Assembly (NCBI RefSeq): GCF_000284115.1
Contig: NC_017080.1
Location: forward strand, 1,980,001 to 2,012,000
Length of the DNA: 32,000 bases
Direction: 5' to 3'
Source: Phycisphaera mikurensis NBRC 102666
GTDB lineage: Bacteria > Planctomycetota > Phycisphaerae > Phycisphaerales > Phycisphaeraceae
In this document: positions 25,231-32,000 of the stretch, one piece after another
How the letters are laid out: each line of letters begins with the position of its first letter
Position numbering within the stretch: the stretch's first letter is position 1
The notes under the pieces: generated by a model
Seen by the model: the letters and a program-made list of their open reading frames with translations, nothing else
Databases searched by the model: none
What the model was told of the DNA's origin: nothing
Program-made: the position numbers and the translations under genes

Positions 25231-25950
25231 ATGTTCACCGGTCTCATCCAGCACGTCGGCCACGTCCGGTCCGCGGACCGCGACCCCGCGGGGCTCCGAC
25301 TCGTGGTGGTCCGCGGGGGGTGGACGCCCGCCGCCGATCCGGTCCGCGGCGACTCGGTGGCGGTGTCGGGCGTCTGCCTGACGGTGGAGGAGGCGACGCC
25401 GGAGACGCTGACGTTCCGCGTCATCGGCCAGACGCTCGCGGTGACGAAGCTGGGGAGGCTCGGACCCGGCGACCGGGTGAACCTGGAGTGTGCGGTCACC
25501 GCCAGCCAGCCGCTGGGCGGCCACTTCGTGCAGGGCCACGCCGATGGGCTCGGCGAGGTCGCGGCGATCCAGACGGACGCGGGCGATTGGCGCGTGCGGG
25601 TGGACGTGCCCGGCGGCTTCGCCCGGCACCTCGTCGACCGGGGCAGCGTCGCCGTCGATGGCGTCAGCCTCACGCTGGCGGAGGTGCACGACGGACCGGC
25701 TGGCTTTACCGTCTGCCTCATCCCCGAGACGCTGGAGATGACCACGCTCGGGAGCCTCGCCGTCGGCGACCCGGTCCATCTCGAGGCCGACGTGCTGGTG
25801 AAGGCGGTGAACGCCCGCGTCGAGGCGATGCTCGGTGGGCAGAAGCAGGAGCGGCCGGTGACCCGGGGGATGCTGCTGGATGCAGGGTTCGCGTCGTCCG
25901 CAGGTTCCCCGAGCGGAGCGATGAGCGGCGCGGGCCGAGATCGCGGATGA
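25231..25950 (+). CDS. ribE: Riboflavin synthase (alpha chain).
   Basis: MFTGLIQHVGHV...GDSVAVSGVCLTV...LGGHFVQGHADG...GSVAVDGVSLTL shows the duplicated lumazine-binding repeats. Start is ATG 25231. Confidence 0.92.
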   Translation: MFTGLIQHVGHVRSADRDPAGLRLVVVRGGWTPAADPVRGDSVAVSGVCLTVEEATPETLTFRVIGQTLAVTKLGRLGPGDRVNLECAVTASQPLGGHFVQGHADGLGEVAAIQTDAGDWRVRVDVPGGFARHLVDRGSVAVDGVSLTLAEVHDGPAGFTVCLIPETLEMTTLGSLAVGDPVHLEADVLVKAVNARVEAMLGGQKQERPVTRGMLLDAGFASSAGSPSGAMSGAGRDRG

Positions 25951-26010
25951 GCCCCCCCCCCCAGCGGCAACGCTCACGCTCGGGAAACATCTCGCCGTTA
26001 GCGTCCGGGC

Positions 26011-27000
26011 ATGACCGCCACCTACCACGACACCGTGCTCGACGTCTACCGCAAGGCCGCGGAGGCGCCGGCCGAGAGCTTGTGCTGCGTGGCGATGCCG
26101 CCGCAGCACCTGCCCGGGCTGCACATCCCCTCGATCATGCACGAGATGAACTACGGCTGCGGCAGCACCGTGCACTCGGCGGACATGCGGAAGGGCCAGA
26201 AGGTCGCCTACGTGGGCGTCGGCGGCGGCATCGAGGCCCTGCAGCTGGCGTACTACACCCGCTCGCCCGGCGGCGTGATCGCGGTGGACCCGGTCGCGGA
26301 GATGCGCGAGGCGGCTCGGAAGAACCTCGACATCGCGGCCGAGACCAACGACTGGTTCGACCCGTCCTTCGTCGACATCCGCGACGGCGACGCGCTGGAC
26401 CTGCCGCTGGACGACGCCGAGGTGCACCTCGCGGCGCAGAACTGCCTCTTCAACATCTTCAAGAGCTCCCCCGATGCCGCGGGCGGCGGCGATCTGGAGA
26501 AGGCGATGGCGGAGATGCACCGCATCCTCAAGCCCGCCGGCGTGCTGGTCATGAGCGACCCGATCGCGCCGCGGCCGATCCCGCAGCACCTCCGAGAGGA
26601 CGAGCGTCTCCGCGCCGAGTGCCTCTCGGGCTGCCTCTCCTACGAGGACTACGTGCGGTCGATCGTCGACGCCGGCTTCGGCCAGCTGGAGATCCGCTCG
26701 CGGCGGCCGTACCGCCTGCTCGATGCCGCCGGCCACGGCATGGAGGAGGACCTGCTGCTGGAGACGATCGAGGTCGCCGCGTACAAGACCCCCGTGGCGG
26801 AGGACGGCGCGTGCGTCTTCACCGGCCGCACCGCGCTGTGGAGCGGCGAGGGCGAGCGCTTCGACGACGGCCGCGGGCACGTCCTGCAGAAGGGTCTGCC
26901 CCTGCCGGTCTGCGACAAGACCGCCGCCGCGCTGGCGAGCACGCCGGGTGTCACCATCACCGACCCCACCTGGCACTTCGCCGGCGGCGGTTGCTGCTGA
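26011..27000 (+). CDS. arsM: Arsenite S-adenosylmethyltransferase, arsenosugar-cluster type.
   Basis: Cys pair SLCCVAMPP; NYGCGST; SAM motif VAYVGVGGGIEAL; QNCLFNIF; ILKPAGVLVMSD; AECLSGCLSYEDY. It is adjacent to arsS. The C-terminus is GGGCC. Confidence 0.78.
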   Translation: MTATYHDTVLDVYRKAAEAPAESLCCVAMPPQHLPGLHIPSIMHEMNYGCGSTVHSADMRKGQKVAYVGVGGGIEALQLAYYTRSPGGVIAVDPVAEMREAARKNLDIAAETNDWFDPSFVDIRDGDALDLPLDDAEVHLAAQNCLFNIFKSSPDAAGGGDLEKAMAEMHRILKPAGVLVMSDPIAPRPIPQHLREDERLRAECLSGCLSYEDYVRSIVDAGFGQLEIRSRRPYRLLDAAGHGMEEDLLLETIEVAAYKTPVAEDGACVFTGRTALWSGEGERFDDGRGHVLQKGLPLPVCDKTAAALASTPGVTITDPTWHFAGGGCC

Positions 27001-27031
27001 AGCGGAAGCCGATGCGAGGCTGAGCCGGTGC

Positions 27032-27309
27032 GGGCAGCGCTACGCTGAACCACGGAGAGGGAAGAGACCGAAGAAGACACAGCCGGAAGCAAGAATGGGA
27101 AGGGCCTCAGGTCAGCGAGATCCGCGGATCGTCGGCCCGCTCGCCGAATCTCCTCGACGGCCCGCCGATCGGTCCTCTGGCGGGCGGGCGGGGCGCTTCT
27201 GGGCGCCAGTGCGAGGACCGCAAGCTGCCGGTGCTCCTGCTCCTGCTCCTCGCTGCTCTGTGTGCTCTTCCCTTTCTTCTCTCTCTGTGATTCAGCGAAG
27301 CGCTGCCCC
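27032..27309. mobile_element. MITE-like nonautonomous element (family A) inserted between arsM and arsS.
   Basis: Terminal inverted repeats are GGGCAGCGCTACGCTGAACCACGGAGAGG (27032-27060) and, read as reverse complement, GGGGCAGCGCTTCGCTGAATCACAGAGAG (27281-27309). Subterminal purine-rich and pyrimidine-rich octamer tracts are present. The termini match the element at 4267. Confidence 0.7.
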
Positions 27310-27351
27310 AACGGCGTCCGATCCTCCAGAGACCACCCGCAAGCACGACCG

Positions 27352-28356
27352 ATGACCGCCACCGACACCCGGCTCCCCGTGGTCTCCGCCGATGCATTCG
27401 CGCGGAGGTTCGAGGAGCCGCTGCACGCGGTGGGCATCACCGCGGTGCAGATCAACATCGGGCTCCGCTGCAACCTCGCGTGCGCCCACTGCCACGTCGA
27501 CTCGTCGCCCCAGCGGCGCGGCGACGAAGACAACATGTCGGAGGAGACGGCGGACCGGATCCTCGCGTGGATCCTCGACCACCCGCAGATCGACACCGTC
27601 GACCTCACCGGCGGCAGCCCGGAGATGAACCCCAACTTCCGGCGGATGGTCGTGGCGTTCAAGCGCCGCGGCATGCGGGTGATCGACCGCTTCAACCCGA
27701 CGATCTACGGCCACGTCGACAGAGACGGCACCGACTACAAGTGGATCCCCGGCTTTCTCGCCGAGCACAGAGTCGAGGTCTCAGCCTCGCTGCCCTGCTA
27801 CACCGCCGACAACGTGAACGAGCAGCGCGGCAGAGGCGCCTTCGACGCCAGCATCGAGGGCTTGCTCGCGCTCAACGCCGTGGGTTACGGCCGCGACCCG
27901 GAGCTGGAGCTGAACCTGGTCTACAACCCCGTCGGCCCGAGCCTGCCGCCGCCGCAGGCCTCGCTGGAGCAGGACTACAAGCGTGAGCTGCGCGAGCGCT
28001 TCGGCATCGAGTTCACGCGGCTGTGGACGATCACCAACATGCCGATCAAGCGCTTCCGGCGGCAGCTGGAGCGCAACAGCAAGCTGGAGCCCTACATGGA
28101 CAAGCTCGTCCACGCCTTCAACCGCGACACACTCGGGGAGCTGATGTGCCAGCACCAGATCCACGTCGACAGCCAGGGCAACCTCTCCGACTGCGACTTC
28201 AACTTCGCGCTGGGGATGCCGACCTCGCTGGGCCGCGGAACGAAGCTCTGGGACCTGACGGCCGAGAACCTCGACGACCGCCGCGTGGTGACGGCGGATC
28301 ACTGCTACGGCTGCACCGCGGGCTCGGGCTCTTCGTGCACCGGCTCGCTGACGTAG
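27352..28356 (+). CDS. arsS: Arsenosugar biosynthesis radical SAM protein ArsS (radical SAM / Cys-rich family).
   Basis: CNLACAHCH (CxxxCxxC); DLTGGSPEMNP; NLVYNP; TITNMPIKRF; Cys-rich tail DCDFNF...HCYGCTAGSGSSCTGSL. Start ATG 27352; the tracked ORF start lies inside the MITE. Confidence 0.85.
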   Translation: MTATDTRLPVVSADAFARRFEEPLHAVGITAVQINIGLRCNLACAHCHVDSSPQRRGDEDNMSEETADRILAWILDHPQIDTVDLTGGSPEMNPNFRRMVVAFKRRGMRVIDRFNPTIYGHVDRDGTDYKWIPGFLAEHRVEVSASLPCYTADNVNEQRGRGAFDASIEGLLALNAVGYGRDPELELNLVYNPVGPSLPPPQASLEQDYKRELRERFGIEFTRLWTITNMPIKRFRRQLERNSKLEPYMDKLVHAFNRDTLGELMCQHQIHVDSQGNLSDCDFNFALGMPTSLGRGTKLWDLTAENLDDRRVVTADHCYGCTAGSGSSCTGSLT

Positions 28357-28516
28357 CTCCGGGCGGAACATCCCGCTCGCCGCGGACCGCGTAAGAATCC
28401 TGCGCTCGCGGACGACTCATCCGGGGGCGGAGGGCCCGCGTACCCCTGTGGGTCCGGCCTGCCCGCCCGCCGCCGCTGCGGCCATGCTCCCCGTCCTCCC
28501 GATCCGACCCCGCTTG

Positions 28517-29365
28517 ATGATGCCAGCCCCGCCCCGAACCCGCACCCGATCCGCCTTCACGCTCATCGAGCTCCTGGTGGTGATCTCCGTCATCGCCCTG
28601 CTCGTGGGGATCCTGCTGCCGGCGCTGGGCGCCGCCCGCGGGGCGGCGCAGGTCTCCGCCTGCCTGAGCAACAGCCGGCAGCTGGCGCTGGCGACCAACA
28701 GCTACCTCGCCGACTTCAAGGACGTCACGCCGAACGCGGCGTACAACAACAAGGCCGGCCTGTCGCCGAAGGGCCAGGGGGCCGCGCCCGGGACGCTGAT
28801 CGGGACCGGCCCCAACCGGGTCATCCCCAGCATCGGCGAGGCGTTGTCGCCCTACCTCTCCGACATCCAGCCCGGGCAGTTCTGGGCCTGCCCGGCGGCC
28901 GATGGCGTGGCCGACAACGCCTTCGCCATCGAAGGTTCAGATCCTTACTCCGGCTTCGCGGCGGACGATCTGTTCGTGCCGAACTACTTCTACATGCAGA
29001 CCTACGCCTGGATCGACATCCCGGCGAACAGCAGCTGGTTCCCGCAGGTCTGGAGCACCCGCAACGCGGCCAACGTCGACCTCGGGAAGATCAACGTGGC
29101 GCCCACGGAGCTGGTTCTCTTTGTGGAGGAGAGCACCAGCCACCACAGCGGCTCGGAGGACATCTACACCCGGGCCGCCGCGGGCAGGAAGGCGACCGAC
29201 ACGTCCAACTTTGCTTTTGCCGACGGGCACGCGGCCACGCAGCGTTTCGACGACCTGGACGGGTACCTCCGATCGCTCCACGGCAAGGTCGTCCAGACCC
29301 AGCCGGCGGGGCAGTGGACGAGCAAGCCCGCGTGGACCTCGCCGCTGAACTTCGACAAACCGTGA
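28517..29365 (+). CDS. Prepilin-type N-terminal cleavage/methylation domain protein (DUF1559-like pseudopilin).
   Basis: MMPAPPRTRTRSAFTLIELLVVISVIALLVGILLPALGAARGAA, and a C-terminal NFAFADGHA motif typical of planctomycetal DUF1559 proteins. Confidence 0.85.
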   Translation: MMPAPPRTRTRSAFTLIELLVVISVIALLVGILLPALGAARGAAQVSACLSNSRQLALATNSYLADFKDVTPNAAYNNKAGLSPKGQGAAPGTLIGTGPNRVIPSIGEALSPYLSDIQPGQFWACPAADGVADNAFAIEGSDPYSGFAADDLFVPNYFYMQTYAWIDIPANSSWFPQVWSTRNAANVDLGKINVAPTELVLFVEESTSHHSGSEDIYTRAAAGRKATDTSNFAFADGHAATQRFDDLDGYLRSLHGKVVQTQPAGQWTSKPAWTSPLNFDKP

Positions 29366-30429
29366 GCGGCGATCCATCTCCCAGGCTGTCCGAAGCCGAC
29401 GCTCCCGGCGTCGCCGATGCCCTCCGCCGCCACGGCTGGCTCGCCGACAGCGAGGCCGTCGCTTCCGTTGCCCCCGCCGGCGAAGGCAACATGAACCTCA
29501 CGCTGCGGCTGCGCATCGCCGGTGGCGAGGGAGGCTCCCGCTCGGTCATCCTCAAGCAGTCCCGCGGGCACGTGGAGAAGTACCCCTCCATCCCGGCGCC
29601 CGCCGAGCGGATCGTCGCCGAGCATGGCTTCTACGCCGAGGTCGCCGCGCTCGATTCCGCGGACCGTGCGTCGGTTTCGTCTTTCCTGCCGACGGTCCGC
29701 GGATTCGCCGAGGCGGAGCGCCTGCTGCTGCTTGAGGACCTCGGCGAGGCGTCGGACCTCACCATTGTCTACGCCGGCGAGGGCTTCCGCGGCGGCGAGC
29801 TGGAGGCGCTCGGCGGCTGGCTCGGGCGGCTGCACGCGGCGACACGCGGGCGTGCCGAGCCGGGGCTCCGGGACAACGGCGCCATGCGCGAGCTCAACGC
29901 CGAGCACCTCTTCGAGGTCCCGCTCGACGGCGTCGCGCGCTTCGGCATGGACCTGGACGACCTCGCGGCCGGGCTCACCGCCGCGGCGGACCGCCTCCGG
30001 CGCGACGCGGGGGTGCGGTCCGCGTTTCATCGGGGGAAGGCGATCTACCTCGCCCCGACCGGCGGCGACGCGGTCTTGCTCCACGGCGATTTCTACCCCG
30101 GCTCGTGGCTGCGCACCGTCGCGGGGGTGAGGGTCATCGACCCGGAGTTCTGCTTCCACGGCGTGCCGGAGGTGGACGCCGGCATCGCGGTCGGCCACCT
30201 CGCGCTCGCCGGCCGCTCCGTCGCCGAGGCGGAAGCCTTCCTCGGCGCGTACGGCCACCCGCTGAACGCCGAGACGCTGCGCGACCTCGCCGGCGTCGAG
30301 GTCGTCCGCCGCCTGATCGGCGTCGCTCAGCTCCCGCTGGGCGGTTCGACGCCGCGGGTCGAGATGCTCGGGCGGGCGCAGGCCACGCTGGCCGCCTCCG
30401 CCGATTGGCGCGGCCTGTTCGCGAGGTGA
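29362..30429 (+). CDS. Phosphotransferase of the APH/choline-kinase superfamily, 5-methylthioribose kinase (MtnK)-like.
   Basis: GEGNMNLTLRL (compare MtnK GDGNLN), LLHGDFYPGSWL, VIDPEFCFHGVPEVDAGIAVGHL. The proposed GTG at 29362 overlaps the pilin stop as GTGA; ATG 29314 is an alternative start. Confidence 0.7.
   Translation: MSGDPSPRLSEADAPGVADALRRHGWLADSEAVASVAPAGEGNMNLTLRLRIAGGEGGSRSVILKQSRGHVEKYPSIPAPAERIVAEHGFYAEVAALDSADRASVSSFLPTVRGFAEAERLLLLEDLGEASDLTIVYAGEGFRGGELEALGGWLGRLHAATRGRAEPGLRDNGAMRELNAEHLFEVPLDGVARFGMDLDDLAAGLTAAADRLRRDAGVRSAFHRGKAIYLAPTGGDAVLLHGDFYPGSWLRTVAGVRVIDPEFCFHGVPEVDAGIAVGHLALAGRSVAEAEAFLGAYGHPLNAETLRDLAGVEVVRRLIGVAQLPLGGSTPRVEMLGRAQATLAASADWRGLFAR
29656..29703. 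repeat. REP-2-like 12-bp-arm inverted repeat inside the kinase CDS.
   Basis: TCCGCGGACCGT (29656-29667) pairs with ACGGTCCGCGGA (29692-29703) across a 24-nt spacer. Total length is 48 nt, or 16 codons (SADRASVSSFLPTVRG). Confidence 0.7.
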
Positions 30430-30459
30430 GAGGTTGCACGCGCGTACCTTCTTTCGCCC

Positions 30460-32000
30460 ATGATCCGCACCCTCCTCCTCGCGCTGCTCTTGGCTCTCGC
30501 GGCTCCGCGGGTCCACGCCGCGCCCGCCGACGTCTGGCTCGACGTCGACACCGCCAACGGCGTCTACGACCCCGACGACGGGATCATGATGATCCAGGTC
30601 TTCCACCGGCCCGACGTGTTCCGCGTCCGCGGCGTCAGCACGCTCTTCGGCAACGCCACGCTGGAGGAGGCCCAGCCCATCGCCGAGCACATCGTGCGGC
30701 GGTACGGCCCCGAGGTGGGGGTCCACCGCGGCGCCGCCTCCGCCGAGGACTTCGGCCGCGAGACCGACGCCACCCGCGCCATGGCCGCCGCCCTCCGCGA
30801 GAAGCCGATGCACGTGCTGGCCGTCGGCCCGGCGACCAACCTGGGCACGGTGCTCTCGCTGCACCCCGAGCTGGCCGACCGCGTGATCTCGGCGGTCATG
30901 GTCGCCGGCCGCCGGCCGGGGCAGCGGTTCCAGTTCTCCGACGACCAGCCCGCCCCCTTCCGCGACGCCAACTTCGAGAAGGACGTGCCCGCGATGCGGG
31001 CGGTGCTCGACAGCGGCGTGAACCTCGTGCTCGCCCCCTGGGAGGTCACCCGCACCACCTGGCTCGACCCCGAGGGCCTGGCCGTGCTCCGCGAGAGCGG
31101 CGGGGCGGGCGCCTGGATCGAGGCGACCACGCGGTACTGGCTGCTCGGCTGGGCGGCGAACCTGGGCACCGAAGGCTTCACCCCCTTCGACACCCTCGCC
31201 GCCGGCTGGTTCACCGACCCCGGGCTCTACGCCGGGGTGCCGGTGAGCGTCGCGATCGTGGAGGGCCCCGACGACGGTGCCCGGCCCGTCGAGCCCCGCG
31301 TCGCGGGCGACCCCAAGCCGTTCCTCGAGGCGCGCGAGGTGCCCGAGGAGGCAGCCAACGGCTTCTACCTCGCCACCGTCGCCGACGCCTTCACCGGCCG
31401 CCTGCTCGAGGACCTCGCCGGCCGCACCGGCGAGCCCGGCCCGCCCTCGGACACGATCTGGCACCCCTCCCCGGGCACCGGGGGCCTCGACCCGTCCGCG
31501 TGGGACGCCGTGGCCTCCCGCTTCGTCACCGCCTCGGGCCGCTTCGACTACGCCGGCCTCGCCGCCGACCCCGACGGCCTCGCGCAGCTCGACGCGTACA
31601 TTGCCGCCGTCGCGGACGCCGACGTGCCCCGCCTCACCCGCGATGCGCACCTCGCCACCGCCATCAACGCGTACAACGCCTGGACGGTGAGGCTGATCCT
31701 CGACCACTTCGCCGAGGGCCGGCCGCCCGCCTCGATCATGGAGATCCCCGAGGACGAGCGCTGGAAGGCTGTCCGCTGGCGCTTCGGGGGGCAGCCGCTC
31801 AGCCTGGACATGCTCGAGCACCTGCTGATCCGCCCGTGGTTCGCGGAGCCGCGGATCCACTTCGCGCTCGTCTGCGCCGCCGCGAGCTGCCCGCCGCTGC
31901 GGGCCGGGGCGTACACGGCGGAGGGGCTTGACGCCCAGCTGGAGGAGCAGATGCGGCGGACGCACGGGCAGGCACCTTGGGTCGGCTTCGAAGCGGGCGA
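30460..32000 (+). CDS. Exported fusion protein: inosine/uridine-preferring nucleoside hydrolase-like domain + DUF547; 3' end beyond the window.
   Basis: Frame 1 is open from ATG 30460 to base 32000 (hand-translated, no stops; absent from the ORF track because it has no stop). Signal peptide MIRTLLLALLLALAAPRVHA. IUNH-like DVDTANGVYDPDDG...VLAVGPATNL. DUF547-like LATAINAYNAWTV...EPRIHFALVCAAASCPPL. Confidence 0.75.
   Translation, partial: MIRTLLLALLLALAAPRVHAAPADVWLDVDTANGVYDPDDGIMMIQVFHRPDVFRVRGVSTLFGNATLEEAQPIAEHIVRRYGPEVGVHRGAASAEDFGRETDATRAMAAALREKPMHVLAVGPATNLGTVLSLHPELADRVISAVMVAGRRPGQRFQFSDDQPAPFRDANFEKDVPAMRAVLDSGVNLVLAPWEVTRTTWLDPEGLAVLRESGGAGAWIEATTRYWLLGWAANLGTEGFTPFDTLAAGWFTDPGLYAGVPVSVAIVEGPDDGARPVEPRVAGDPKPFLEAREVPEEAANGFYLATVADAFTGRLLEDLAGRTGEPGPPSDTIWHPSPGTGGLDPSAWDAVASRFVTASGRFDYAGLAADPDGLAQLDAYIAAVADADVPRLTRDAHLATAINAYNAWTVRLILDHFAEGRPPASIMEIPEDERWKAVRWRFGGQPLSLDMLEHLLIRPWFAEPRIHFALVCAAASCPPLRAGAYTAEGLDAQLEEQMRRTHGQAPWVGFEAG

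Follow-up and report, generated by a model that had tools for sequence, protein, structure and literature searches.

An MtnK-like kinase, an exported nucleoside hydrolase::DUF547 fusion and a prepilin-like protein form a conserved gene module beside arsM and arsS in Phycisphaera mikurensis

Introduction

In the MtnN/MtnK route of methionine salvage, a nucleosidase takes adenine off a 5'-substituted adenosine, and 5-methylthioribose kinase (Bacillus subtilis and Arabidopsis; structures 2OLC, 2PUN and 2PYW) then phosphorylates the 5-substituted ribose at C1. The present work deals with a locus where a similar pair of genes lies beside arsenic genes. It is found in a stretch of 32,000 nucleotides (the window) of the planctomycete Phycisphaera mikurensis NBRC 102666, G000:C1:1980001-2012000, in a genome of 3.88 Mb with two contigs and 99.97% completeness. 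In this window, the arsenosugar-type genes arsM and arsS are followed on the same strand by a prepilin-like gene, the gene of an MtnK-like kinase and the gene of an exported nucleoside hydrolase fused to a DUF547 domain. An earlier note on this DNA had proposed the kinase and the hydrolase as missing steps of arsenosugar biosynthesis.

Arsenosugar synthesis is initiated by ArsM and ArsS, as in Synechocystis. ArsS adenosylates dimethylarsenite, DMAs(III), to 5'-deoxy-5'-dimethylarsinoyl-adenosine (DDMAA) (PMC13598754). The literature searched defines the pathway only as far as DDMAA and assigns no gene to any step after it, in agreement with the earlier note; it likewise names no enzyme for the exchange of adenine for glycerol, phosphate esters or lipids. 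NCBIfam has an arsenosugar set (TIGR04282, TIGR04283 and TIGR04169), of which the kinase, hydrolase, DUF547 and prepilin-like genes are not named members.

Two other described systems are close to these genes. The dihydroxyacetone phosphate (DHAP) shunt consists of a nucleosidase, an MtnK- or DrdK-type kinase, an isomerase and an aldolase. In this shunt and in 5-deoxyribose salvage, the sugars that come from the 5'-deoxy-nucleoside by-products of S-adenosylmethionine (SAM) enzymes are substrates of an MtnK-family kinase. According to one report, such 5'-deoxy-nucleoside salvage routes can also use exogenous nucleosides (PMC10986504). The hydrolases RihA, RihB and RihC share with the window protein the IU_nuc_hydro domain and an N-terminal aspartate cluster.

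Results and discussion

The conserved trio

The prepilin-like gene, the kinase gene and the hydrolase::DUF547 gene are one conserved module. Their order is kept in the distant contigs L174/175, L176, L177/178 and L179, where the fusion proteins checked are 41-48% identical to that of the window and the L177 kinase is about 39% identical. The prepilin-like orthologs directly upstream of the kinase in L174, L176 and L177 align over their full length at 43-48% identity. When the L177 prepilin-like protein was compared with the P. mikurensis genome by tblastn, the window gene was the best match with 219 bits, and the next paralog reached 77. In the window, the TGA stop of the prepilin-like gene and the GTG start of the kinase gene overlap as GTGA (29362-29365), and 30 nt separate the kinase from the hydrolase. 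The pseudopilin gene had earlier been taken for a mere interruption between arsS and the kinase, which is not borne out, since it has orthologs as a member of the trio in distant contigs.

The prepilin-like protein matches the N_methyl family PF07963 and the model TIGR02532 (22.3 bits vs 16.3). Its score with the GspG model TIGR01710 is 23.9 bits, below the cut-off of 88.85, with the match limited to the N-terminal methylation motif. For the copies in L174 and L179, there is a further match to SBP_bac_10.

The trio of L177 belongs to a co-directional array that begins with a truncated ArsM-like gene, arsS (frameshifted), a redoxin gene and a VTT::DUF547 gene. After the trio, it continues with a MerA-like flavoprotein, an FNR-like protein, a GT-C protein and a GT2::TIGR04282::TIGR04283 fusion. 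In L179, a gene for an ArsR/SmtB-family regulator (L179:7766-8086; NF033788, 62 bits vs 55) ends 3 nt before the trio. Regarding these data, together with the neighbourhoods described below, the module could well be an accessory to the arsenosugar-type gene system of ArsM and ArsS, probably a branch for salvage. We put forward this reading of sequence and gene context tentatively.

The arsS gene of L177 (2691-3675) and the same region of L178 are split by a frameshift into a radical SAM N-terminal part and a DUF3641 C-terminal part. Two assemblies of different origin show this split, which could reflect a pseudogene or a common set of reads behind both.

The kinase

The resemblance to MtnK pointed out in the earlier note is upheld by the fold and by the catalytic motifs. 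The only significant sequence matches of the kinase in the PDB are the MtnK proteins of Arabidopsis and Bacillus (2PYW and 2OLC). Identity is only 17-20%, and the HGD loop, the IDPEF metal site and the RRxxG motif are aligned; all three are invariant in a 12-member alignment of the kinase family that covers several phyla. The AlphaFold2 model (pLDDT 89.6) has MtnK structures as its top 16 Foldseek neighbours in the PDB, with TM scores of 0.65-0.74. The score with the MtnK equivalog model TIGR01767 is 63.2 bits, below the cut-off of 275. Judged by its sequence, the kinase is therefore MtnK-like and not an MtnK equivalog. A six-frame search of the genome with TIGR01767 at E<=1e-8 gave nothing, the window kinase included. 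As the model misses this genome's own kinase, its use as a probe in the cyanobacterial control genome was considered uninformative and was dropped. The Pfam match is the generic APH family (PF01636), and some homologs also match Fructosamin_kin. The kinase has no export signal, and its family is present in at least 594 species genomes.

No match to MtnN (TIGR01704) or MtnA (TIGR00512) was found in the genome, which does encode an MTAP-like phosphorylase elsewhere, with a score just under the family cut-off. The lack of MtnN and MtnA places the kinase outside classical methionine salvage, and this role was rejected; without MtnA, the product cannot enter that pathway. The locus differs from MtnN/MtnK in other respects. 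The nucleosidase here is an exported IU_nuc_hydro::DUF547 protein, whereas MtnN is a cytoplasmic enzyme of the PNP_UDP_1 type, and the partners of the module are glycosyltransferase-type genes instead of an isomerase and a dehydratase.

The hydrolase::DUF547 fusion

The IU_nuc_hydro domain (PF01156) covers residues 25-277 with 90.6 bits (gathering threshold 34.2). DUF547 (PF04784) covers residues 391-499 with 80.4 bits (threshold 27), within a DUF547 part that makes up the C-terminal 250 aa. At least 40 protein clusters have this combination, with identities of 35-53%. The N-terminal aspartate cluster is stretched: the two halves of DxD...DD are separated by 8-10 residues, compared with the canonical DxDxxxDD, and this spacing is conserved in the module homologs. 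The protein is also far below the cut-off of the Rih equivalog profiles (44.7 bits vs 382) and, unlike RihA, RihB and RihC, it is exported and fused to DUF547. The N-terminus resembles a signal peptide ending at VHA|AP, as judged by inspection, and most module hydrolases carry a signal peptide. Thus, the possibility raised earlier that the hydrolase acts outside the cytoplasm is strengthened by export signals on the hydrolase and the fused DUF547, here and in most homologs.

DUF547 is the bridge between the hydrolase module and the ArsS gene set. Across 301 Planctomycetota genomes, DUF547 is present in 60 of the 81 with ArsS and in 52 of the 220 without it (odds ratio 9.2). Among the ArsS loci inspected (L136-L153 and L004-L033), 7 of the 15 long ones from Planctomycetota have a free-standing DUF547 gene a few kb or less from ArsS, and the nearest relatives with ArsS are among these. 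DUF547 lies directly beside ArsS in 4 of 30 short Planctomycetota loci and near it in 3 of 20 Cytophagales loci. Other fusions of DUF547 involve VTT domains and, in a single Atlas cluster, radical SAM domains. The P. mikurensis genome has three copies (G000:C1:2011630, 2263717 and 2581861). One of them belongs to a second DUF547 operon on the minus strand (C1:2580000-2582600; L134:5993-8557), which encodes a lipoprotein-type DUF547 protein, a GT2 protein and an SDR protein.

The family shows an invariant His...Cys-x4-Cys signature, and the window copy has the NAYNA and H..C-x4-C positions. Nearly all DUF547 proteins associated with these clusters have a signal peptide, a lipobox or a membrane anchor. 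The DUF547 model has a pLDDT of 90. Foldseek found no match in the PDB at E<=0.001, and the best hit of a wide VIA-align search (Z 4.8) was uninformative, so that novelty of the fold is not shown by this result. The literature searched gives no function for DUF547; a family with neither a function nor a solved structural match here is now tied to arsenic-associated clusters.

Gene neighbourhoods across phyla

The neighbours of the kinase were counted within 10 kb in the best 80 species-level loci. A homolog of the inosine-uridine nucleoside hydrolase (IUNH) family adjoins the kinase in 40 of them, from at least 10 phyla, almost always immediately downstream. Glycosyltransferase genes of the TIGR04282/TIGR04283 type are present in 10 loci, DUF547 in 10, and one or the other in 14. 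These 14 loci come from Hydrogenedentota, Nitrospirota, Acidobacteriota, Myxococcota, a deltaproteobacterial metagenome-assembled genome (MAG), Actinomycetes and Bacteroidota. The kinase-hydrolase pair stands beside TIGR04282/TIGR04283 and DUF547 genes in at least eight phylum-level lineages, and representative TIGR04282/3 neighbours pass the curated cut-offs. In this way, relatives of the module adjoin the NCBIfam arsenosugar set in other phyla. A looser, single-linkage count of the glycosyltransferases (20/80) was discarded, as it included weak DUF2064 relatives such as those of Flavobacterium (77 bits vs 134).

ArsS itself lies within 10 kb in only one of the 80 loci. A DUF547-kinase operon and a TIGR04283-TIGR04169-ArsS-TIGR04282 operon are divergently arranged in L119 (Dyadobacter), with all scores above the cut-offs, and genome G428 shows this arrangement too.

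In 12 Bacteroidota loci, a TonB-dependent outer-membrane receptor gene is found directly upstream of the kinase (for instance L073:6729-9800 and L054:6934-9918), in the position held by the prepilin-like gene in Planctomycetota. A weak DUF2064 relative is also upstream in nine Flavobacterium loci and one Nibrella locus; that of L073 reaches 77.4 bits with TIGR04282, whose cut-off is 134.

Neither an isomerase (MtnA or DrdI type) nor an aldolase was found among the conserved neighbours of the kinase. The DHAP shunt and 5-deoxyribose catabolism were considered as roles of the module and are not supported, because these two enzymes are missing from the conserved neighbourhood; the genome also has no MtnA-type isomerase.

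Furthermore, PNP/MTAP-like genes are present inside some ArsS/TIGR04282/TIGR04283 clusters (L142:10412-11092, L155:6715-7527, L156:7651-8412 and L091:8107-8745). A search of the 35 long ArsS loci (15 from Planctomycetota and 20 from Cytophagales) with the MTAP-like protein of P. mikurensis found such genes in at least three, a search of low sensitivity at 24-28% identity. An in-cluster phosphorylase of this kind may be a one-step alternative to the hydrolase and the kinase.

Co-occurrence of the kinase and ArsS

The earlier note had looked to co-occurrence with arsS, and the expectation was borne out only in part: the kinase is enriched with the ArsS gene set and appears with it in recurrent clusters, but most ArsS genomes lack the kinase and many kinase genomes lack ArsS. 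ArsS is found in 81 of the Planctomycetota genomes and the kinase in only four; in the two others that carry both, the genes are not adjacent. Among 201 Cytophagales genomes, ArsS is present in 60, the kinase in 14 and both in eight. In this order, ArsS is found in 8 of the 14 kinase-bearing genomes and in 52 of the 187 without kinase (p 0.03). TIGR04283 is found in 8 of 14 and 37 of 187, respectively (p 0.004). TIGR04283 is almost confined to Cytophagales with ArsS, since 40 of its 45 carriers have that gene. Of 50 genomes with the kinase, drawn from many phyla, 36 have TIGR04283 above the cut-off, as do all three other kinase-bearing Planctomycetota. ArsS was found in 21 of these 50, and another 21 have TIGR04283 and no ArsS. 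The latter group could mean that the system lacks arsenic specificity, or that exogenous precursors are used. The ArsS-less carriers of the kinase include four named species that are not MAGs: two Flavobacterium, Fibrisoma limi and Algoriphagus pacificus. Hence, the module also works in cells without endogenous DDMAA.

These counts indicate that the kinase and the hydrolase are not general obligatory steps after ArsS, and that the kinase is independent of it. As most of the ArsS-positive genomes searched do not have the kinase, the module is dispensable for the pathway.

A possible accessory branch

If the module is an accessory branch of the arsenosugar-type system, the following scheme can be proposed. 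The hydrolase domain would remove adenine from a 5'-deoxy-5'-substituted adenosine outside the cytoplasm; a candidate substrate is DDMAA, either made by ArsS and then exported or released by neighbouring organisms. It would act alongside DUF547, the exported domain with the invariant His...Cys-x4-Cys. The prepilin-like protein, or the TonB-dependent receptor in Bacteroidota, could help in capture or import. In the cytoplasm, the MtnK-like kinase would phosphorylate the freed 5-substituted ribose at C1, and the sugar-1-phosphate would pass to a nucleotidyltransferase of the DUF2064/TIGR04282 type and a GT2 of the TIGR04283 type. The sequence of a nucleosidase and then a kinase would be that of MtnN/MtnK. 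In other ArsS clusters, a one-step phosphorylase may take the place of the hydrolase and the kinase, and the cytoplasmic MTAP-like enzyme of P. mikurensis could in principle phosphorolyse DDMAA directly. The substrates, the way of transport and the direction of flux are inferred in this scheme, as is the part that DUF547 and the prepilin-like protein play.

The locus and its relatives in other phyla provide concrete candidates for this chemistry: the hydrolase::DUF547 protein, the MtnK-like kinase, the prepilin-like or TonB-dependent-receptor partner, DUF2064 and GT2. They point to the cell envelope as the site of part of the arsenosugar-type chemistry, and to more than one route, with the hydrolase and the kinase in some genomes and a phosphorylase in others. 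The results also suggest that arsenosugar glycosyltransferase, the NCBIfam label of TIGR04283, may be too narrow.

Several observations weigh against this scheme. The kinase is missing from 78 of the 80 other Planctomycetota with ArsS and from 52 of the 60 Cytophagales with ArsS, and 29 of the 50 kinase-bearing genomes have no ArsS. The association tests treat related genomes as independent and so exaggerate significance. For TIGR04282/3 and DUF547, the connection with arsenic comes only from gene context and from the names given in NCBIfam. In P. mikurensis itself, no TIGR04169-like gene was seen in the locus, and the best genes of the other two types are below their cut-offs and not linked to arsS. 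The TIGR04283-like gene at C1:2580917 (144.8 bits, cut-off 182) is beside the second DUF547 gene, and the TIGR04282-like gene (DUF2064) at C1:2470552 has 101.3 bits (cut-off 134). The topology is not uniform either, as about 8 of 40 module hydrolases have no signal peptide. Finally, there is no arsS at the locus of a related lineage (L039:7906-10004 and L040:2-1048; kinase 78% identical), where the trio comes directly after arsM. Ns fill part of the start of the prepilin-like gene in L039, but the same arsM-prepilin junction is free of gaps in L040.

Alternative explanations

The module could instead serve general scavenging of exogenous 5'-deoxy- or ordinary nucleosides (5'-methylthioadenosine (MTA), 5'-deoxyadenosine, purine nucleosides), with no specific link to arsenic. 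The exported hydrolase would free the base and the sugar, and the kinase would trap the latter. TIGR04282/3 and DUF547 would belong to a wider system of ribosyl transfer not tied to arsenic, with the clusters that contain ArsS as just one of its uses. We regard this as a doubtful explanation that must still be taken seriously. It would account for the 29 kinase-bearing genomes without ArsS, 21 of them with TIGR04283, and for the scarcity of ArsS around the kinase (one locus in 80). It is also consistent with the mostly exported hydrolases and the TonB-dependent receptors upstream of the kinase in Bacteroidota. There is a precedent as well: bacteria are reported to grow on 5'-deoxy-nucleosides through a nucleosidase and an MtnK-type kinase (PMC10986504). 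However, with no isomerase or aldolase among the conserved neighbours and no MtnA in the genome, a catabolic or salvage sink for the ribose-1-phosphate derivative is missing. Moreover, TIGR04283 in Cytophagales is nearly restricted to genomes with ArsS, DUF547 strongly tracks ArsS, and the trio is found inside an ArsM/ArsS cluster in L177 and behind an ArsR-type regulator in L179.

An extension of the accessory branch, which we consider unlikely as it stands, is that the module is the entry point of organoarsenical cross-feeding. DDMAA or related 5'-modified adenosines from algae, cyanobacteria or neighbours would be captured, by bacteria with or without ArsS, through a TonB-dependent receptor or a prepilin-like binding protein. 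The hydrolase::DUF547 protein would cleave them in the periplasm, with the Cys-x4-Cys of DUF547 perhaps acting as a partner that handles the arsenical by binding or redox chemistry. After re-activation of the sugar by the MtnK-like kinase and the DUF2064 nucleotidyltransferase, the TIGR04283-type and GT-C transferases would build it into envelope glycoconjugates. If true, this would account for the half of the kinase-bearing genomes that have TIGR04283 and no ArsS.

The strong form of the proposal in the earlier note would have the hydrolase and the kinase catalyse, in the cytoplasm, the obligatory second and third steps of de novo arsenosugar synthesis, directly on the DDMAA made by ArsS. The genes adjoin arsM-arsS here and in close relatives, MtnK-type chemistry suits a 5-substituted ribose, and the literature searched leaves the steps after DDMAA unassigned. 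Nevertheless, this is improbable. The hydrolase::DUF547 protein has a signal peptide here and in most homologs, and an exported hydrolase, when ArsS and the ATP-dependent kinase are cytoplasmic, counts against general missing steps. The absence of the kinase from nearly all other Planctomycetota with ArsS and from most such Cytophagales points the same way. No kinase or IUNH gene was found within about 9 kb of ArsS in any of the 35 long ArsS loci. In addition, no cyanobacterial label was found among the best 80 kinase loci or the best 120 kinase protein clusters, although the cyanobacterial control genome has ArsS, TIGR04282 and TIGR04283. Therefore, what remains of the earlier proposal is the link of the two enzymes with the ArsS gene set, through the pair in half of the kinase loci, L119, L177 and DUF547; as universal steps they do not hold, being lineage-restricted and having an exported hydrolase.

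Lastly, it is very improbable that the adjacency lacks functional meaning and that the kinase phosphorylates an unrelated small molecule, like other APH enzymes (antibiotics, fructosamines, choline): the Pfam assignment is indeed generic, with Fructosamin_kin matches in some homologs, and synteny among close relatives is not independent evidence, but the kinase is found with IUNH, DUF547 and TIGR04282/3 across phyla (14/80 loci, with well under 1 expected), its nearest structures are those of MtnK specifically, which rank before every other APH-fold kinase, and the trio is conserved at 39-47% identity.

Organization of the locus

Reading frames were chosen by the G+C content at third codon positions (GC3), in DNA of about 72% G+C, and then confirmed by profile searches. 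GC3 was 0.91-0.98 in the chosen frames of the five locus genes, and all five (arsM, arsS, pseudopilin, kinase and nucleoside hydrolase) were confirmed on the plus strand as placed before (Table 1).

Table 1. Features of the arsM-arsS locus and the adjoining module (window positions).
Feature	Position	Strand	Remarks
Riboflavin synthase	25234-25950	+	Immediately upstream of arsM
arsM, arsenosugar-type arsenite methyltransferase, 329 aa	26011-27000	+	NF038099, Methyltransf_11/31/25, GC3 0.97
arsM-arsS spacer, 351 bp	27001-27351	none	
arsS, radical SAM enzyme, 334 aa from the ATG at 27352	27352-28356	+	TIGR04167, Radical_SAM + DUF3641
Prepilin-type (N_methyl) exported protein, first gene of the trio	28448-29365	+	PF07963, TIGR02532
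MtnK-like APH-family sugar kinase, 355 aa from the GTG at 29362 (alternative GTG at 29314)	29362-30429	+	PF01636
Exported nucleoside hydrolase::DUF547, 588 aa	30460-32226	+	IU_nuc_hydro, DUF547; the frame passes the window end (32000) and stops at 32226

Both initiating genes, as in the Synechocystis system, pass the curated cut-offs. The ArsM protein matches NF038099 (arsenosugar biosynthesis ArsM) with 536.9 bits (cut-off 400) over profile positions 1-321 of 321. The ArsS protein scores 387.7 bits with TIGR04167 (cut-off 300). It has a Radical_SAM domain, a C-terminal DUF3641 (174.9 bits), the CxxxCxxC motif in the form CNLACAHC and a Cys-rich C-terminus. From these features, it is predicted to be an ArsS that adenosylates dimethylarsenite to DDMAA.

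The scan of the locus found no promoter-like sites. There were three terminator-like matches, no more than shuffled sequences give, and none between genes on the plus strand. The terminator scan also flagged a hairpin-like element at 29661-29677, within the kinase coding sequence; the kinase protein aligns with a 72%-identical relative with no insertion at this hairpin.

The arsM-arsS spacer has a counterpart in the close relative L038, where the gap is about 320 bp. In L038, L041 and L042, from sample ERZ25039505, single stops or frameshifts interrupt arsS, the kinase and the hydrolase alike. Since several genes are broken in these contigs, assembly indels are likelier than pseudogenes. The pairing of riboflavin synthase and arsM (window 25234-27000) is kept in all close relatives (L038, L039, L041 and L042).

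Past the end of the window (+3322 to +4122; L003:10322-11122; G000:C1:2015322-2016122), about 3 kb downstream of the fusion gene, there is an FNR-like NAD_binding_1 gene. It is the sole match in this genome, with 34% identity, to the FNR-like gene of the L177 and L176 clusters.

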